Shown piece by piece: positions 119 through 9,845 of a stretch of DNA of 13,205 bases. The notes under the pieces were generated by a model, which saw only the letters and a list, made by a program, of their open reading frames with translations, was not told the DNA's origin and did not search any database. The DNA comes from a virus (Duplodnaviria > Heunggongvirae > Uroviricota > Caudoviricetes), in the IMG/VR virus record IMGVR_UViG_2671180849_000011; one strand, written 5' to 3'. How positions within the stretch are numbered: position 1 is the stretch's first letter; every line of letters starts with the position of its first letter. A program made the position numbers and the translations under genes.

Positions 119-124
119 TAGTCT

Positions 125-215
125 CGCGAGAGGTTGATTTTTGTTAGCAGGTTTTGCCCCGCATCAAAAGGATACCGGAGAAGAGCCCCTTTGTTAACAC
201 TTAGGGGCTTTTTTC
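125..215 (+). ncRNA. candidate small RNA of about 90 nt (promoter-to-terminator unit with no ORF)
   Basis: Predicted start about 125 after the -10; no ATG/GTG-initiated ORF before the terminator; 5' end GCGAGAGGTTGATTT (126-140) is antisense to leader elements at 8510-8527 and 9052-9069 of - strand mRNAs. Confidence 0.3.
184..215 (+). terminator. rho-independent terminator
   Basis: Stem AGCCCCT (184-190) / AGGGGCT (203-209), 12-nt loop, then T-run 209-214; sits just beyond the stop (266-268) of the convergent 708-aa gene. Confidence 0.6.
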
Positions 216-4334: not shown

Positions 4335-5231
4335 TTATTTAAACTCTAAAATGCCTTTTTTATTTTTTCTAACATTTCTCCACAATATTTCGGGATAATC
4401 TCCGCAGGTTTTATCTAACAATATTTCGAATCCCATCCCAATAAGCTTATTTGCAAAAATAAAAACAGGTCTGGTTAAATGCCAGTATTCTTCCGGTTTC
4501 CAGATTTCACCCTCTATTTTCCCTTTATGTTGGCTTACCTCTTCTGCGGTGTAAAAATCCTCCTGAATCTTTGACAAAAGGATCGGGCGACGTTTGTTTA
4601 AATCTTTGTATTTGCTTTCCCACAGTGATCGCATTATGCCTTTAGCCTCACTCTCACCCAGGACAATCCAGCCCCCATCGGTTACATCTTTCACAGGACG
4701 GCCCCGGCGTGGCTTGTCACTAACAGCGTTAATTTGAGGCGCTTTAGTGTCTTGGGTAGGCAATTGCACCACCTTAGCCTTTTTAGCTTGCTGTGTGGCT
4801 TGTTTTGGGGCTTCTTGCGGGTGTTTCTCTTCACTACCTGCATTGCTCATAGGTTGTATTCCTTGAGCGTCACACATTTTGCAGATTTGAGAAGGAGTAA
4901 TTAACAGTTTGTAATGATTAGATTTGCCTTTACTTTTAATTACTGAAATAAGCCCGGCATTTTCCAGAGTTTTGATAGATTCAATGATTTTTCTATCACT
5001 CACACCACATATTTTTGCTAAGGTCTGCTCTGAGATAAATATTTCTTGCCCGTTTAAATGAAAACCTGCCATTTTTCCATAGATTGTTACCTCTATCAGG
5101 TCTAAATTAAATCGCTCTTTTGTTTTTCCAGTCTTTTTATTAGCAATTGTTGTTGCTACTGGTTTATCAAAAGTATACTGAATGAGGCGTTCGAAATGGG
5201 GATTAAAAACCTCCCCGTAATTACTTGCCAT
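4335..5231 (-). CDS. winged-helix DNA-binding protein (298 aa), replication-initiator-like or antirepressor-like
   Basis: ATG at 5231 preceded by GGGGGA; N-terminal wHTH-like segment ISEQTLAKICGVSDRKIIESIKTLENAGLISV; central P/Q/K/A-rich linker with KPRRGRPVK (AT-hook-like); architecture recalls lambda O-type initiators (from memory, unverified). Confidence 0.5.
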   Translation of the reverse strand: MASNYGEVFNPHFERLIQYTFDKPVATTIANKKTGKTKERFNLDLIEVTIYGKMAGFHLNGQEIFISEQTLAKICGVSDRKIIESIKTLENAGLISVIKSKGKSNHYKLLITPSQICKMCDAQGIQPMSNAGSEEKHPQEAPKQATQQAKKAKVVQLPTQDTKAPQINAVSDKPRRGRPVKDVTDGGWIVLGESEAKGIMRSLWESKYKDLNKRRPILLSKIQEDFYTAEEVSQHKGKIEGEIWKPEEYWHLTRPVFIFANKLIGMGFEILLDKTCGDYPEILWRNVRKNKKGILEFK

Positions 5232-5244
5232 AGTTCCCCCACAG

Positions 5245-5460
5245 TTATTTATTAATGTTGTTGGTGTATTTAGCCAGCTCACGCTCAAGGCGGAGACGAT
5301 TCAGTTCTAAAATTGCCGCTTCAATGTGTGGATATTCTCCTTTGTGTTTACGAATAAATGCATAAACGGAAGTTTTTCGAAAGTTACCTTTAAGCACGTT
5401 CTCGACGATTTCGTCAGTAGTCCAGTTTACCAGCTGGCTTATCGGTCCGGTTTTAGCCAT
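5245..5460 (-). CDS. hypothetical small protein (71 aa)
   Basis: ATG 5460 preceded by SD AGGAGA at 7-nt spacing; stop 13 nt before the next start; basic, possibly DNA-binding. Confidence 0.5.
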   Translation of the reverse strand: MAKTGPISQLVNWTTDEIVENVLKGNFRKTSVYAFIRKHKGEYPHIEAAILELNRLRLERELAKYTNNINK

Positions 5461-5786: not shown

Positions 5787-5808
5787 TATTGACAACCAAT
5801 TGTCAATA
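5787..5808. promoter_or_regulatory. palindromic operator overlapping candidate leftward promoter
   Basis: Perfect inverted repeat TTGACAA (5789-5795) - CCAA - TTGTCAA (5800-5806), arms extend to 9 bp; on the - strand TTGACA, 17-bp spacer, TAAGAT; a third half-site TTGTCAAT at 5929-5936. Confidence 0.4.
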
Positions 5809-6424
5809 GGAATCATTATCATTTAGGCGAGCTATAGGTACAAACAAGTCCACAGCAAAGGGGTAAGCATTATTAATGGCCCCTACCGTGTCAAAACCAA
5901 AGTCACTTATAGCATTTATGCAATAAGATTGTCAATGGCCCACAAGGGAGGGAGAGCACTTTTTGCCTTAAGCGCTCTAAAATCGATTCTAACGCGATTT
6001 AGAGGTCAGGTAATGCAATTGCACTACTCACACAAGTTAATGCAGCCAGAAGGCCATTTAGGGGCCTTATTTTCGATTTCTGAGCGTCCTGTTACGTGTG
6101 TGCATACACGGGCGCGCGGAATCCCTCGCTTAAACGGTCCGGATTGGAAACAGAAGTCTCTTATCCGGACTCCACATTATATAGCTACGTGCTATCGCAC
6201 TACGCTACCCACACACAGGCCGACGTAGTCGGTTTAGCTGTATAGCTAAAGTCACAGAGTGACCCACACACAGATTGCCTAAAGAGTCGCTAATGCTCTT
6301 TAGGCTTTCATTTGTGGGTTAAGCTTTTCCCTTAGAAAACCTTCCCCACTCTCTGATCCCTCCCCATTCCCCTTGGGGGGTTAGGGGGGGATCTGTTGTG
6401 TGATCTATTAATTTATCTATTAGA

Positions 6425-6645
6425 GTGAGAAATTTTCAGGGGTACTAGTGAGAAATCTTCGGTAGTAGTGGTGAGAAATTCTCAGGGGTGTGGGTAGGTA
6501 TGGTGGTTAAGTAGTGAGAAATCTTCAGTAGTTAGAGGCTGTGTATCATGGGGGCAATGACTGCAAAACGGGAAAGCATGACTGTATAAACACACAGGTG
6601 TGAAAATTCTTCACAGGTTAGCGACACCGGAAAAATCTTCAGTAG
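6425..6645. repeat. iteron-like direct repeats, six copies of about 18 bp (consensus GTGAGAAATCTTCAG(G/T)(G/A)G)
   Basis: Copies at 6425-6442, 6448-6465, 6471-6488 (exact 23-bp phasing), 6514-6531, 6598-6617 (degenerate), 6630-6645; preceded by G-run GGGGGGTTAGGGGGGG 6375-6390. Confidence 0.6.
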
Positions 6646-6655
6646 TGTCTATCTG

Positions 6656-6753
6656 CATATGTGGGAAATACACCCTTATTGACCTATTTTGACTAGCAAA
6701 CCTCTCTCTTCTCTCTTTGCTCTGATTTCCTCTCATGTGTGGGAAATATGCAT
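6656..6753. repeat. second repeat family CAT(A/G)TGTGGGAAATA (two copies) flanking a CT-rich tract
   Basis: catatgtgggaaata at 6656-6670 and catgtgtgggaaata at 6734-6748; pyrimidine-rich tract 6701-6734; a related copy aaaatgtgggatata near 7047-7061. Confidence 0.45.
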
Positions 6754-7488
6754 ACCAACACCCGTTGATTTTATCAATAGCTATGTTGACCGGGCATCAT
6801 AAGTGTGGCCCCTGAGGCAGTCCATCCTTCCCTCACACAGGACAATGAATATATAAAGAACATGAAAGACTGTTCACACCAACACGCCGATAAATTGCCT
6901 GAAGAGGCTTACATGGGGTTATTGTTGTGTGGGTAATGGTGATCATGCTAACAGATTATGTTAATCAGATGTAAATTCCGATTTTGTGGTCTGCATGGAG
7001 CAAACTATACTGGTTAAATGATCAGGGGAATGACTACAAAACAATCAAAAATGTGGGATATAGCCATCTACACGTCTAATGTGCTGTGTGGGGTGTTAGT
7101 GCATGCTTACATGTAAGTCATTGATTTGAAGGGTTGGGAAAATTGCATTTAACATAATAGATCTTATCTACACTAATAAAGCGAACTACAAAATCTGATT
7201 TAAAAATCATGATCAGTGGGCACAGAATTTACGTACAGCCACCTGAATAAATAATGTGCACAACATACAGCAAAGCTTAAGAATTAACATAATAGCAACG
7301 TGGTCAGTAGTGGTGTGATATTTGAGAATTGTTAGAAGAAAAAAGGGAGGTGGGGGAGCGCCTGCCTGGCACCTCAGACGAGTTACCCATAAGCTCAAAT
7401 ACCGCTAATGGATATTTCTGACACCCACACCCAAGACCGCTTTCAGCACATAGCCATATAGCCACACAGGACCGCACAGGATGCAATT

Positions 7489-7698
7489 GTGATAACAAAA
7501 AATGGGGGTGTAATAGGGTAGGTCACCTTTCATCAAAATCACTTCTACGACGTTTCCAGAGTGATAACAAGAAAACAGGCCTCTAAGATTATCTGTGCCT
7601 CGTTTTTAGCTTTTTGTGTGGTTACCAGGTGAAGAGGAAATGTTAAAAACTGTTCATTTTATGCACAAACTAGTCAGGGTGATACCACAAAATGAGGT
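7489..7698. repeat. third repeat family GTGATA(A/C)CA-A-rich-GG, three copies
   Basis: gtgataacaaaaaatggggg 7489-7508, gtgataacaagaaaacagg 7561-7579, gtgataccacaaaatgagg 7679-7697; DnaA-box-like TTATGCACA at 7659-7667. Confidence 0.45.
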
Positions 7699-7887
7699 GT
7701 AAGAAATCCAGCTGCAGATAATCTTGCAGCCAGATTTTGCAGTTTTTTAGGGTATGTTAAATTTGACAAAAATAGAGAAAAGGCTTATTAAGCTAACTTA
7801 TTGATTTTATTAGTATTACGAAAAAGGGTTACACCCTCTCTCTTACTCTGTCAACCGGGCGGTTGTGGCATAAAACGGATTAAATCA

Positions 7888-7946
7888 ATAAATAGGCATT
7901 AAATAGGGGATAAATAGGGGTTAATTGAGGGATAAATAAAAAGGGG
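7888..7946. repeat. five tandem 11-bp phased repeats (A/T)TAAAT(A/T)GGGG
   Basis: Units start at 7888, 7899, 7910, 7921, 7932 (exact 11-bp period); last unit merges into the terminator stem. Confidence 0.55.
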
Positions 7947-7959
7947 CCGTGATGGCCCC
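7931..7959 (-). terminator. rho-independent terminator of the membrane-protein gene
   Basis: Stem GGGGCC (7943-7948) / GGCCCC (7954-7959), loop GTGAT; - strand tail TTTTTATTTATC (complement of 7931-7942); 8 nt past stop codon 7968-7970. Confidence 0.6.
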
Positions 7960-7967
7960 CTGGTAGG

Positions 7968-8498
7968 TCAGAACAGTTTTTTGCTTTTTCTCCAACTAAC
8001 GCCGCGTTTGCCTATGCTCAGCCAGCCGCCAGCGAATCGGGTACCTGCGGTAACACTAGCTCCCCTGGTACCTACATGTGCATAAATACCTGCTCCACTG
8101 CTACCACCGCTTCTACGGCTTTTTCCGCCATCGATATCAAGGAGAACACAGATCGCATTCCACCAAAAGCCGATCACCCATATTGCAAATGCTAAGCCTA
8201 AAACGCCCCAGGTGACCGCCCACCCTTCCAGACTAGTGGGGAAGTAGAAAGCATTGAGAACAGCATTTATAGGGCGGATCAGGAGAAAATCTATAAAACC
8301 AGTATCCACATGAAACGGTCCATTGCCGAACTTGCTACTGCCAATAAATAAGGTAGCAGGGTAAAAGAAGATAGCCATTGCCCAAGGGCCAATAAGCAGG
8401 ATAGTAGCCCCGAACTGTGCGGCCTCCTTAAAGAACATTTTTACTATTGCTTTAAAAAGCTTTTTGTTTTCTGATTCTTTATCTTTCTGAAATAACAT
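7968..8498 (-). CDS. polytopic membrane protein (176 aa) with Gly/Ser/Arg-rich C-terminal tail
   Basis: ATG 8498 preceded by AAGGGG; about four hydrophobic segments; own terminator; position and type fit a superinfection-exclusion or abortive-infection moron (inference). Confidence 0.6.
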   Translation of the reverse strand: MLFQKDKESENKKLFKAIVKMFFKEAAQFGATILLIGPWAMAIFFYPATLFIGSSKFGNGPFHVDTGFIDFLLIRPINAVLNAFYFPTSLEGWAVTWGVLGLAFAIWVIGFWWNAICVLLDIDGGKSRRSGGSSGAGIYAHVGTRGASVTAGTRFAGGWLSIGKRGVSWRKSKKLF

Positions 8499-8509
8499 GA
8501 CGGTACCCC

Positions 8510-8527
8510 TTTGCGAGAAGTTGAATT
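8510..8527 (-). promoter_or_regulatory. conserved leader element copy 1, 12 nt upstream of ATG 8498
   Basis: + strand TTTGCGAGAAGTTGA (8510-8524) identical to 9052-9066 at the same distance from a start codon; 13/15 match to 126-140. Confidence 0.5.
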
Positions 8528-8555
8528 TAGTTAATAACCTGTTGGACTGTTCCTA

Positions 8556-8816
8556 CTATTTATTCTTCTTAAATCTCCCATCCTCCTTTCTCTCGATATT
8601 GTGGTAGTCGGCATAGGCTTTCAGCCTTCTGTGCACGGTGGCGATCCCCACACCGAAGGTTTTAGCGATAACCTGTCGTGGTGTTCCCTCTTCAACCATC
8701 TTGTACATCTGTTCCGCTACATCCATTTGTGCGGCTATCTCCATTTGCTTTGCCTTAGCTTTAATTTCAGCTATCAGCTCTTCCCTCAGTCTCCTGATAT
8801 CTTTAGCCCCCGTCAT
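8556..8816 (-). CDS. small HTH DNA-binding regulator (86 aa)
   Basis: SD GAGGAG 3 nt before ATG 8816; N-terminal predicted coiled coil; C-terminal HTH TPRQVIAKTFGVGIATVHRRLK of the resolvase/Mor-like type (by eye). Confidence 0.6.
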   Translation of the reverse strand: MTGAKDIRRLREELIAEIKAKAKQMEIAAQMDVAEQMYKMVEEGTPRQVIAKTFGVGIATVHRRLKAYADYHNIERKEDGRFKKNK

Positions 8817-8839
8817 AAACTCCTCTCAATGCTGTTCAT
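8813..8839 (-). CDS. 8-codon upstream micro-ORF (MNSIERSL) overlapping the HTH gene start
   Basis: ATG 8839 preceded by GCGGAG; stop TGA 8813-8815 overlaps ATG 8816 (ATGA); lies in an 18-bp direct repeat that duplicates the SD-start region. Confidence 0.2.
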   Translation of the reverse strand: MNSIERSL

Positions 8840-8916
8840 AAACTCCGCTCAATCATGATTAGTAGAACATCCAGGATAGCCAGACCTATTAAAAATGCTT
8901 TGCCTCCTTTGCCCAT
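8836..8916 (-). CDS. 26-aa hydrophobic micro-ORF (MGKGGKAFLIGLAILDVLLIMIERSL)
   Basis: ATG 8916 preceded by GGAGG at 6-nt spacing, 1 nt after stop of the upstream micro-ORF; stop TGA 8836-8838 overlaps ATG of the 8-codon uORF (ATGA). Confidence 0.25.
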   Translation of the reverse strand: MGKGGKAFLIGLAILDVLLIMIERSL

Positions 8917-8917
8917 C

Positions 8918-9040
8918 TCACACCTCCACACACAGAGCTAACATCAGGGCTAACACTCCAACCACCTCAATTGCCTTAACAATGTGTGGGTGATGAAACC
9001 TGGCCTTTTGCCATGCGCTGGCACTGTTCTTGATACCCAT
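8918..9040 (-). CDS. 40-aa micro-ORF with C-terminal hydrophobic helix (track ORF extends to 9145)
   Basis: Internal ATG 9040 preceded by SD AAGGTGA at 5-nt spacing and by leader element copy 2; ATG 9145 has no SD and the N-terminal extension is low-complexity. Confidence 0.3.
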   Translation of the reverse strand: MGIKNSASAWQKARFHHPHIVKAIEVVGVLALMLALCVEV

Positions 9041-9051
9041 AACTATCACCT

Positions 9052-9069
9052 TTTGCGAGAAGTTGATTT
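9052..9069 (-). promoter_or_regulatory. conserved leader element copy 2, 12 nt upstream of ATG 9040
   Basis: + strand TTTGCGAGAAGTTGA (9052-9066) identical to 8510-8524; GCGAGAAGTTGATTT (9055-9069) is 14/15 identical to 126-140. Confidence 0.5.
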
Positions 9070-9336: not shown

Positions 9337-9365
9337 TTGACAATGTGAGTAAATACTGATATAAT
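9337..9365 (+). promoter_or_regulatory. perfect-consensus sigma70 promoter (TTGACA - 17 bp - TATAAT) with AT-rich upstream region
   Basis: TTGACA 9337-9342, exactly 17-bp spacer, TATAAT 9360-9365; AT-rich 9305-9335 (UP-element-like); faces the capsid genes. Confidence 0.65.
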
Positions 9366-9373: not shown

Positions 9374-9508
9374 TACCGTGAATCATTTAGCGAAGGTGGT
9401 TTACCGTATTTTCCTCCAAAGTAACGGCGACCAGGTAGCGGTGCCGCCTTATAAATAACACTACCCTGATCATCGTTGAGTGGTCGATTAATTCTCCTAT
9501 TGGGCTAG

Positions 9509-9517
9509 TTATCCACA
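9509..9517 (+). promoter_or_regulatory. consensus DnaA box TTATCCACA inside the capsid-operon leader
   Basis: Exact 9-mer; also the 5' arm of an inverted repeat CCACACAG (9513-9520) / CTGTGTGG (9539-9546). Confidence 0.3.
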
Positions 9518-9845
9518 CAGTTTTCTTTTGCGGGTTTTCTGTGTGGGTAGCTATCCCGAAAGGTATTTCCCCGCTGATGTGACCGCAGCCTGAACTGATT
9601 CGGGGGAGTGCCTTTCGTGATAGTGCTCTCTAGCAACCGTAACCATGCAGTGAACTATCAGCCAACTGTTGTTGGTTTTCCCCATATGGAATAGCCCCCG
9701 CTTGGACGGTGCGGGGCTATCTCCCTCTCCTTATATCAATCCCCCTTTAGATTTCCGGCATAACTTTTCGGCCCGAGCCTGTCGTGGTTTGAGAGGTTAT
9801 ACCTGAACCCTTTGAGGGGAGTTAATTTAAATCGCAGGTGATCAA

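Follow-up and report, generated by a model that had tools for sequence, protein, structure and literature searches.

A conserved membrane protein gene in an exchangeable-cargo slot of an Escherichia coli plasmid related to rV5-like phages

Introduction

T4 Imm and Sp, HK97 gp15 and P22 SieA are small inner-membrane proteins that block superinfection; they have no enzymatic domain, and they are encoded by accessory genes or beside regulators. Exclusion genes of virulent phages, T4 imm and sp for example, lie among small genes at variable positions. Satellites and phages store anti-phage genes in variable hotspots (PMC9122126). Satellites that exist as plasmids have been reported only from Vibrio, as the PISP and cf-PISP elements, which encode ParA and lack tail genes (PMC13230959, Nat Commun 2026), and a 2025 review counted a single plasmid satellite (PMC12282955). 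Here, we consider a stretch of 13,205 nucleotides (nt) recorded as viral in IMG/VR (IMGVR_UViG_2671180849_000011; hereafter the window), which matches complete plasmids end to end and corresponds to approximately one whole circular E. coli plasmid of 13.2-13.7 kb. Its open reading frame (ORF) ORF176 encodes a membrane protein of 176 amino acids (aa) and is exchangeable cargo in a fixed slot for expression. Tentatively, with a probability of about 0.4, we read the product as an envelope-level phage-interference protein that acts by exclusion or by modulating entry.

How does this locus compare with the described systems? It resembles the satellite and phage hotspots reported in 2022 (PMC9122126) in that unrelated genes are swapped between conserved flanks at a fixed position of the backbone. 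However, the slot here holds a single coding sequence (CDS) between a terminator and a leader that bears a ribosome-binding site (RBS), the element is a plasmid rather than an integrated satellite, and none of the three types of cargo matches a known defence family. The likeness to the superinfection blockers lies in the small size, the probable inner-membrane location, the accessory status and the absence of an enzymatic domain, and in the short ORF176 homologues that are found among the small genes of virulent rV5-like phages. On the other hand, ORF176 has no sequence or fold similarity to T4 Imm or Sp, HK97 gp15 or P22 SieA, none of which is known to end in a conserved beta-hairpin of basic character. 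Accessory membrane proteins in variable slots of phage-related elements are a familiar kind, of which this protein architecture and this exactly bounded slot are new forms.

An expression slot with alternating cargo

The slot region was aligned from seven complete circular E. coli sister plasmids. Identity is ~90-100% up to the ATG, including the leader with AACTAAATTCAACTTCTCGCAAAGGGGTACC directly 5' of the start codon, and returns to ~100% from the terminator GGGGGCCATCACGGCCCC onward. Between these borders, three unrelated CDSs are swapped exactly from ATG to terminator (Table 1). The window, L001, L002 and L012 carry the ORF176 type, and the alternatives are a 236-aa and a 195-aa protein that have the C-terminal motif CKDxxxNDR[WF][LF]x[MI]xH in common and match no Pfam or PHROG family. 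All three cargos are targeted to the envelope, and both alternatives are exposed to the periplasm. (The first helix of the 236-aa cargo has a GPW motif resembling helix 1 of ORF176.) Such swapping is the genomic signature of cargo for exclusion or defence.

ORF176 is a real gene under purifying selection, since its orthologues on the sister plasmids are 70-94% identical and have a ratio of nonsynonymous to synonymous substitution rates (dN/dS) of 0.18-0.29 (pairwise Nei-Gojobori), with about 0.28 as the value for the ORF. Homologues in related elements are 34-48% identical. Because the leader and terminator are common to unrelated cargos, they are assigned to the slot and thereby to the conserved plasmid backbone, rather than to ORF176. 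The terminator hairpin (7961-7941; 8 bp, six of them G-C) begins 6 nt past the ORF176 stop codon. Upstream, no promoter- or terminator-like site was found in the 57-nt gap between ORF176 and the preceding helix-turn-helix (HTH) gene. A scan for sigma-70-like sites, which would not recognise phage-specific promoters, found none in this leader or towards the 3' end of the HTH gene. As there is no site to separate the two genes, co-transcription is the simplest reading, and ORF176 is probably expressed together with the HTH gene. An HTH domain homologous to that of the upstream protein opens a 234-243-aa protein that precedes the ORF176 homologue in the related elements L009 and L025.

A first-pass annotation, made from the letters of the window, had proposed a self-contained gene with its own leader and its own strong terminator, typical of phage morons. 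The gene itself is borne out by its ORF, RBS, terminator and the selection acting on it, and its accessory nature in a phage-related mobile element agrees with the alternation of three unrelated envelope cargos in seven sister plasmids. The leader, however, is that of the slot, being identical or nearly so in all seven plasmids across cargos, and the terminator, although strong, is conserved backbone that all cargos use. The gene is not self-contained, since no site was found that separates it from the HTH gene. By comparison with morons, ORF176 has a downstream terminator (shared with the backbone) and shows replacement polymorphism among collinear relatives, but no promoter of its own was found, and its base composition is not distinct (46.0% GC vs 44.6% plasmid-wide). 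It is thus moron-like in behaviour, as exchangeable cargo of a fixed slot, without being a self-contained transcription unit.

Table 1. Coordinates of ORF176, its parts, the slot and other features. Positions are those of the window unless another record is named.
Feature	Position	Strand	Basis or remark
ORF176 CDS	7968-8498 (stop at 7970-7968)	minus	ATG to stop, 176 aa; ORF list and translation
Membrane anchor, residues 28-121	8136-8417	minus	Hydropathy and AlphaFold
Variable G/S/K/R linker, residues 122-134, IDGGKSRRSGGSS	8097-8135	minus	Length and sequence differ among members
Basic Gly-rich tail, residues 135-176	7971-8096	minus	22 invariant columns in 22 sequences; dN/dS; predicted strands
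GGGG Shine-Dalgarno sequence	8506-8509	minus	7 nt 5' of the ORF176 ATG
57-nt slot leader with 15-mer (8510-8524) and GGGG RBS	8499-8555	minus	(Near-)identical in all seven sister plasmids whatever CDS follows
Slot intrinsic terminator, GGGGGCCATCACGGCCCC followed by a T-run	7931-7961	minus	Terminator scan; kept 3' of all three cargo genes
236-aa cargo, two N-terminal transmembrane helices and a large external C-terminal domain	L013 8618-9328		Slot alignment
195-aa cargo with signal peptide	L014 4394-4981; L015 339-926		Slot alignment
86-aa HTH_7/HTH_23 protein gene	8556-8816	minus	Pfam HTH_7, E=3.4e-6
Second 15-mer copy	9052-9066	minus	11 nt 5' of an ATG (9040); region 92-100% conserved in sister plasmids
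40-aa hydrophobic peptide ORF, MGIKNSASAWQKARFHHPHIVKAIEVVGVLALMLALCVEV	9040-8918	minus	Translation
Tape-measure protein gene	266-2392	minus	Pfam/PHROG scan
Replication-initiator-like HTH_36 protein gene	4335-5288	minus	Pfam/PHROG scan

The membrane anchor and the conserved tail

The first-pass annotation had counted about four hydrophobic segments. Kyte-Doolittle hydropathy and AlphaFold give three helices instead, two strong and one weak: the strong segments cover residues ~28-53 and ~93-121, and the weak one (~66-88) contains Asp70 and Arg75. In the AlphaFold model built from a 22-sequence alignment, helices span residues 2-53, 68-85 and 90-119 with a predicted local distance difference test score (pLDDT) of 70-85; the overall pLDDT of the two runs was 61 and 67. 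In the same alignment, W107 is invariant and P38, P47, P76 and Y85 nearly so, Pro76 standing directly after Arg75 in the weak helix. Between distant family members the anchor has a dN/dS of 0.26-0.38. The last 54 residues of the protein include 13 G, 8 S, 6 R and 5 K and have a net charge of +10. The protein would be located in the inner membrane, and the positive-inside rule would favour a cytoplasmic position for a tail of this charge.

The tail is a strongly conserved domain and the most constrained part of the protein. Its consensus reads GxGxYxHxGT[RK]GxSxTxGxRxxGGWLxxGKxGxxWR[KR]SK[KR][LI][FLW], and 22 of the 23 invariant columns of the 22-member alignment fall within residues 135-176. 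The dN/dS is 0.04-0.12 overall and 0.04-0.06 between distant members, where dS exceeds 1.6 and synonymous sites are saturated. Both AlphaFold runs, at low confidence, draw four short strands with glycine turns (136-143, 146-155, 158-163 and 166-171 in the model from 22 sequences), so that a four-strand beta-meander is the predicted fold. The tail had been annotated as a flexible G/S/R tail, which is right for the composition; only residues 122-134 behave as a variable linker, while the last 42 residues are the most conserved and not merely flexible.

What is this tail related to? The sole Pfam family touched is DUF4236 (PF14020), which was reached by six of seven isolated tails, always below threshold; the best tail gave E=0.059 and that of the window 12.9 bits (E=0.17), compared to a gathering score of 27 bits. 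A Pfam scan with full-length ORF176 gave no match to this family. When the tail alignment was compared by hhalign to four genuine DUF4236 N-termini, from proteins retrieved from plasmids, the probability was 65% over 33 columns at 39% identity, both profiles being shallow. DUF4236 is an uncharacterised, basic, Gly-rich beta-repeat of ~55 residues, and the tail has the same style of repeat, in which short strands are split by G-x-[KR]-G turns, as well as an RKS motif. However, DUF4236 is found at the extreme N-terminus of soluble-looking proteins of 350-400 residues (e.g. beside ter genes on IncHI2 plasmids), whereas in ORF176 the motif comes last, C-terminal to a membrane anchor. The similarity is weak, and a relationship is no more than possible. 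No paper on DUF4236 and no function for it was found in the literature searched, so that membership of the family would not provide a mechanism for the tail.

Other comparisons gave little. Foldseek searches of ORF176 against BFVD and the PDB returned nothing below E=0.9, and a search of PADLOC-DB 2.0 returned no match at E<=0.1. The ORF176 family is unannotated and without significant relatives in sequence or structure, and the literature searched did not mention it. The only match of the tail profile among PDB sequences covers 14 residues, read NGGWLSLGGGGIRW, in the N-terminal domain of a tailspike (7rfv/7rej/7rfo); at E=0.42 it is not significant and was taken as chance. (It is recorded here since rV5-like phages have branched tail-fibre assemblies.) Colicin-immunity-like proteins are similar in size and number of helices and were also considered, but they were rejected, as Pfam gave no match and the plasmid carries no colicin gene.

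Distribution of the family

The ORF176 family is rare. An exhaustive HMMER scan of 1.84 billion representative proteins found five relatives only, and a full-length profile search of 5.8 billion proteins found 21 clusters; the tail-only profile returned nothing from the latter set. No member occurs in the GTDB set of 185,579 bacterial and archaeal species (one genome each), and IMG/VR yielded no relatives. All long members examined (P0004, P0005, P0007 and P0017) reside in related elements, which are syntenic where the contig is long enough; for most other long members the longest contigs are ~14 kb. In several contigs, genes for Neck1, a Dit-like protein, a 78-aa protein, capsid and a 111-aa protein run one way, and diverging from them are the HTH protein, the small hydrophobic peptide, the ORF176 homologue, the terminator and a long non-coding region. 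The HTH proteins of these elements are homologous to that of the window.

Two short members of 87-88 aa, with one helix and the same tail, are encoded on contigs of divergent rV5-like phages. Both are located directly after a homologue of Murica gp094, in a variable stretch of small genes; the gene that Murica has in this place is unrelated. A tblastn search with ORF176 and the short homologue P0008 against 50,697 phage records gave no match at E<=10, a result weakened by the low-complexity filter. Since the filter probably accounts for part of this null result, the complete genome of the Vequintavirus Murica was searched in six frames with an unfiltered hidden Markov model of the tail. This search, in which positive controls reached 78-88 bits, gave no homologue (best E=0.8). 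In these searches the family is restricted to the plasmid-like elements and some rV5-like phages, and in both it behaves as an accessory gene.

This distribution bears on a match of residues 58-110 to ABC2_membrane_6 (PF06182), obtained with E=0.0012 and 19.1 bits, according to which ORF176 would be a fragment or relative of an ABC-2 permease. The score is below the cut-off of 22 bits, only 53 of the 229 profile positions are covered, and the match lies inside hydrophobic helices and was not repeated in the five other full-length members scanned (P0004-P0008). A family that is missing from the 185,579 species genomes and confined to these elements and rV5-like phages is not what a permease would lead one to expect, and we regard this origin as highly improbable. 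As this sub-threshold match of 53 residues is the only similarity to a transporter, ORF176 is not taken for a housekeeping-transporter fragment.

Two variants of the theme deserve mention. P0022 (L024 2059-2268) is a 69-aa in-frame deletion variant that keeps helix 1 and the last nine residues, GWRKSKRIF, and is probably a decaying copy. Larger related elements with an ORF176 homologue (18.9 kb contig) encode a Lambda_Kil-type small protein (L008 5402-5524; L003 1752-1874) and many small unidirectional genes, a gene content that suggests phage-like host-takeover functions.

The repeated leader element

The 15-mer TTTGCGAGAAGTTGA occurs exactly twice in the window, at 8510-8524 and 9052-9066. 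Both copies read TCAACTTCTCGCAAA on the coding (minus) strand and thus form a same-sense direct repeat, and each ends exactly 11 nt before an ATG, one that of ORF176 and the other that of the 40-aa ORF. Because they have the same sense, the copies are not complementary and cannot pair with each other. The window holds no inverted copy, the only match with three mismatches also being same-sense (123-137, minus strand), and Rfam detected no small RNA (sRNA) or other family in this region. The 15-mer had been annotated as the match of a candidate sRNA; these observations speak against that role and in favour of a duplicated element of the translation-initiation region. Its core ACTTCTCGCA is found at the same place in the leader of the ORF176 homologue of the distant element L025, and the shorter TCTCGCA recurs in L006, so that the element is probably functional. 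It may act at the RNA level, as a translational operator, or at the DNA level, as an operator or start region.

Could this element hold a toxic protein in check? ORF176 might be an abortive-infection or addiction effector that is restrained through the shared leader element and released upon phage infection or plasmid loss. The presence of the element before a second small hydrophobic ORF, at identical spacing to the ATG, would fit this idea, as would the retention of ACTTCTCGCA in L025 and the nature of the product, a membrane protein with a highly basic tail. However, the analysis turned up no antitoxin, antisense promoter or complementary RNA; the two 15-mers are same-sense and the Rfam search was empty. 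ORF176 also seems to close a regulator operon, and its RBS is strong but ordinary. We therefore consider a toxic effector quite unlikely.

Several other small features lie nearby. Upstream of the HTH gene, the minus strand has small hydrophobic-peptide ORFs at 8836-8915 and 8918-9040. In the distant relatives L009, L006, L025, L008 and L003, a gene for a hydrophobic peptide of 38-39 or 66-71 aa directly precedes the ORF176 homologue, and these peptides may be its partners in the membrane. A 16-mer, AAATCAATAAGTTAGC, is found twice on the minus strand (7792-7807 and 239-254), each time just past the end of a minus-strand unit, namely that of ORF176 and that of the tape-measure gene. AATCAA-type motifs related to the 16-mer precede the 15-mer copies, and L025 has AATCAATAACT(T) once more in its leader and two times in its non-coding region. 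All of these sequences may be protein-binding sites. Three tandem 11-nt units (ATAAATAGGGG-like) are located at 7888-7931, directly 3' of the ORF176 terminator, with insertions and variants in the sister plasmids.

Possible functions of ORF176

Why would such a plasmid carry a slot for envelope proteins? The behaviour of the locus as a hotspot, for which there is precedent (PMC9122126), the envelope targeting of all three cargos and the position of the short forms in phage genomes together point to phage interference at the envelope. The very strong constraint on the tail and the relation of the plasmid to rV5-like phages are further points in favour, and the exclusion, abortive-infection or injection-blocking role named in the first-pass annotation is plausible. 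According to this model, the slot (leader with RBS, cargo CDS and terminator), at the end of the transcription unit of the HTH regulator, would express ORF176, and the three-helix anchor would insert the protein into the inner membrane. The short variable linker would then present the basic 42-residue beta-hairpin module, which would be the functional head. This conserved tail might bind a conserved partner at the membrane, be it a protein of phage or host, an anionic lipid or an anionic polymer. In this way, ORF176 would exclude superinfecting or competing phages, or interfere with the entry of helper-phage DNA or with its envelope steps.

Several points weigh against phage interference. No defence or exclusion family in PADLOC, PHROG, Pfam or NCBIfam matches ORF176, and a promoter scan of the minus strand for the HTH-ORF176 unit produced only weak candidates. 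The tail model has low confidence, with a pLDDT of 39-52 in both AlphaFold runs. The topology is ambiguous, since three full passes from a cytoplasmic N-terminus would place the tail in the periplasm, whereas the positive-inside rule places it in the cytoplasm. Even between elements with proteins of only 34-46% identity the family keeps its position, which is more in the manner of a core gene of the life cycle than of disposable cargo. Finally, a satellite would hinder its own spread if it blocked its helper constitutively.

The retention of position leads to another explanation, in which ORF176 would be a core life-cycle component, a membrane tether. Its basic tail would hold DNA of the plasmid or phage, or else a virion or replication protein, in the service of replication, segregation or packaging of the plasmid during helper infection. 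In the same elements with 34-46% identical proteins, the gene follows the HTH gene and precedes the iteron-bearing non-coding region; in the window, it adjoins repeat-rich non-coding sequence (11-nt tandems at 7888-7931 and iterons at 6423-6646). The strong purifying selection on ORF176 and the lack of a recognisable partition system on these plasmids would also suit a tether. On the other hand, unrelated proteins replace ORF176 in three of the seven otherwise near-identical complete plasmids, and the gene is therefore dispensable at least for maintenance. Moreover, a natural 69-aa variant without the tail exists (P0022), and no nucleic-acid-binding fold was detected. For these reasons a tether is unlikely.

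Could ORF176 instead time lysis? In the PLE satellite of a virulent vibriophage, the small membrane protein LidI alters lysis timing. A holin-like, antiholin-like or LidI-like ORF176 could shift the lysis of the helper-infected cell to the benefit of the plasmid or, for the short form, of the phage. A small membrane protein with a strongly basic C-terminus has the general look of a holin, and ORF176, with three helices and a +10 tail, conforms to this loose and non-specific description; furthermore, the short homologues are encoded by rV5-like phages themselves. However, there is no Pfam or PHROG holin match and no endolysin or spanin on the plasmid or beside ORF176, nor did the window or the related elements examined show lysis genes. 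Holins usually have a short, variable C-terminus, whereas ORF176 ends in an invariant beta motif of 42 residues. One of the alternative slot cargos is a soluble secreted protein, and Murica, which has its own annotated lysis genes, lacks an ORF176 homologue. A role in lysis timing thus appears rather unlikely.

A broader proposal also seems unlikely to us: the tail might be an unrecognised membrane-tethered effector module that controls a conserved step of infection at the envelope, either DNA entry or lysis timing, used in a one-helix form by rV5-like phages and in a three-helix form by the ~13-14 kb plasmid satellites that parasitise them. If so, no satellite-plasmid of a virulent myovirus would have been seen in E. 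coli before this one, nor any satellite with tape-measure and tail-initiator genes of its own, and ORF176 would offer the first functional handle on DUF4236-like domains.

If, as in the favoured reading, the slot cargo controls phage infection at the envelope, an anchor with a conserved basic beta-hairpin tail would be a new architecture among exclusion and defence proteins, and a plasmid-borne, satellite-like element of virulent rV5-type phages would carry a plug-in slot for genes of this sort. The clean arrangement of leader, exchangeable CDS and terminator makes the role of the cargo directly testable by swapping.

The host plasmid

The plasmid occurs in seven complete RefSeq genomes and in PLSDB records and is typed as non-mobilizable, and JGI metagenomes contain one more copy. 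No description of this plasmid family was found in the literature searched, and megablast of the window against the phage database gave no match. Besides the minus-strand genes in Table 1, the plus strand encodes a 111-aa protein, a major capsid protein, an 86-aa protein, a Dit-like/tail-tube-initiator protein and a Neck1/tail-completion protein. Among phages, the structural proteins all have their closest relatives in Vequintavirinae (rV5-like virulent myoviruses), with identities of 51% for the tube initiator/Dit, 24.5% for the major capsid protein and 26% for the tape measure, and the order of the plus-strand module matches that of Murica (head decoration, major head, Neck1). The Pfam/PHROG scan found no recognisable partition, terminase or protease gene. 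Because a partial and divergent set of virion genes resides on a 13 kb plasmid, the element looks like a candidate phage satellite that is kept as a plasmid and is related to virulent rV5-like myoviruses.

The nearest published concept is that of the Vibrio PISP and cf-PISP satellite-plasmids (PMC13230959), which likewise are small circular extrachromosomal elements (11-16 kb) with plasmid replication functions. A satellite-type major capsid protein is another point of likeness, PF03864 (Phage_cap_E) being matched in the relatives L009 and L025. Unlike them, however, the E. coli element has tape-measure, Dit-like/tube-initiator and Neck1 homologues of a virulent myovirus group and no recognisable partition gene. 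The plasmid family may be a more important object than the slot cargo itself; the description of satellite-plasmids is recent and limited to Vibrio (PMC13230959).

Within 5800-7940 there is a gene-free stretch of ~2.2 kb with many short repeats, both CCCACA-type and GTGATAACAA. It includes five iteron-like copies of ~21 nt, TAGTGAGAAATCTTCAGTAGT, at 6423-6646, the first three spaced 23 nt apart. This iteron region is probably the replication origin and possibly also a packaging site, as far as its repeats indicate. On the plus strand, a perfect sigma-70 consensus promoter at 9337-9365 (TTGACA, 17 nt, TATAAT, with an upstream TG) is aimed at the operon of the 111-aa and capsid proteins and lies ~480 nt upstream of the first ORF. 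The leader in between is 98-100% conserved in the sister plasmids over ~9420-9620, and a strong GC hairpin is located near 9690-9730 in the leader 3' of the promoter. The plasmid record NZ_CP043822.1 (39,610 bp) has three matches to the window (~3 x 13.2 kb) and is either a multimer or an assembly artefact. Ten plasmid units approximate the length of an rV5-type genome (~136 kb).

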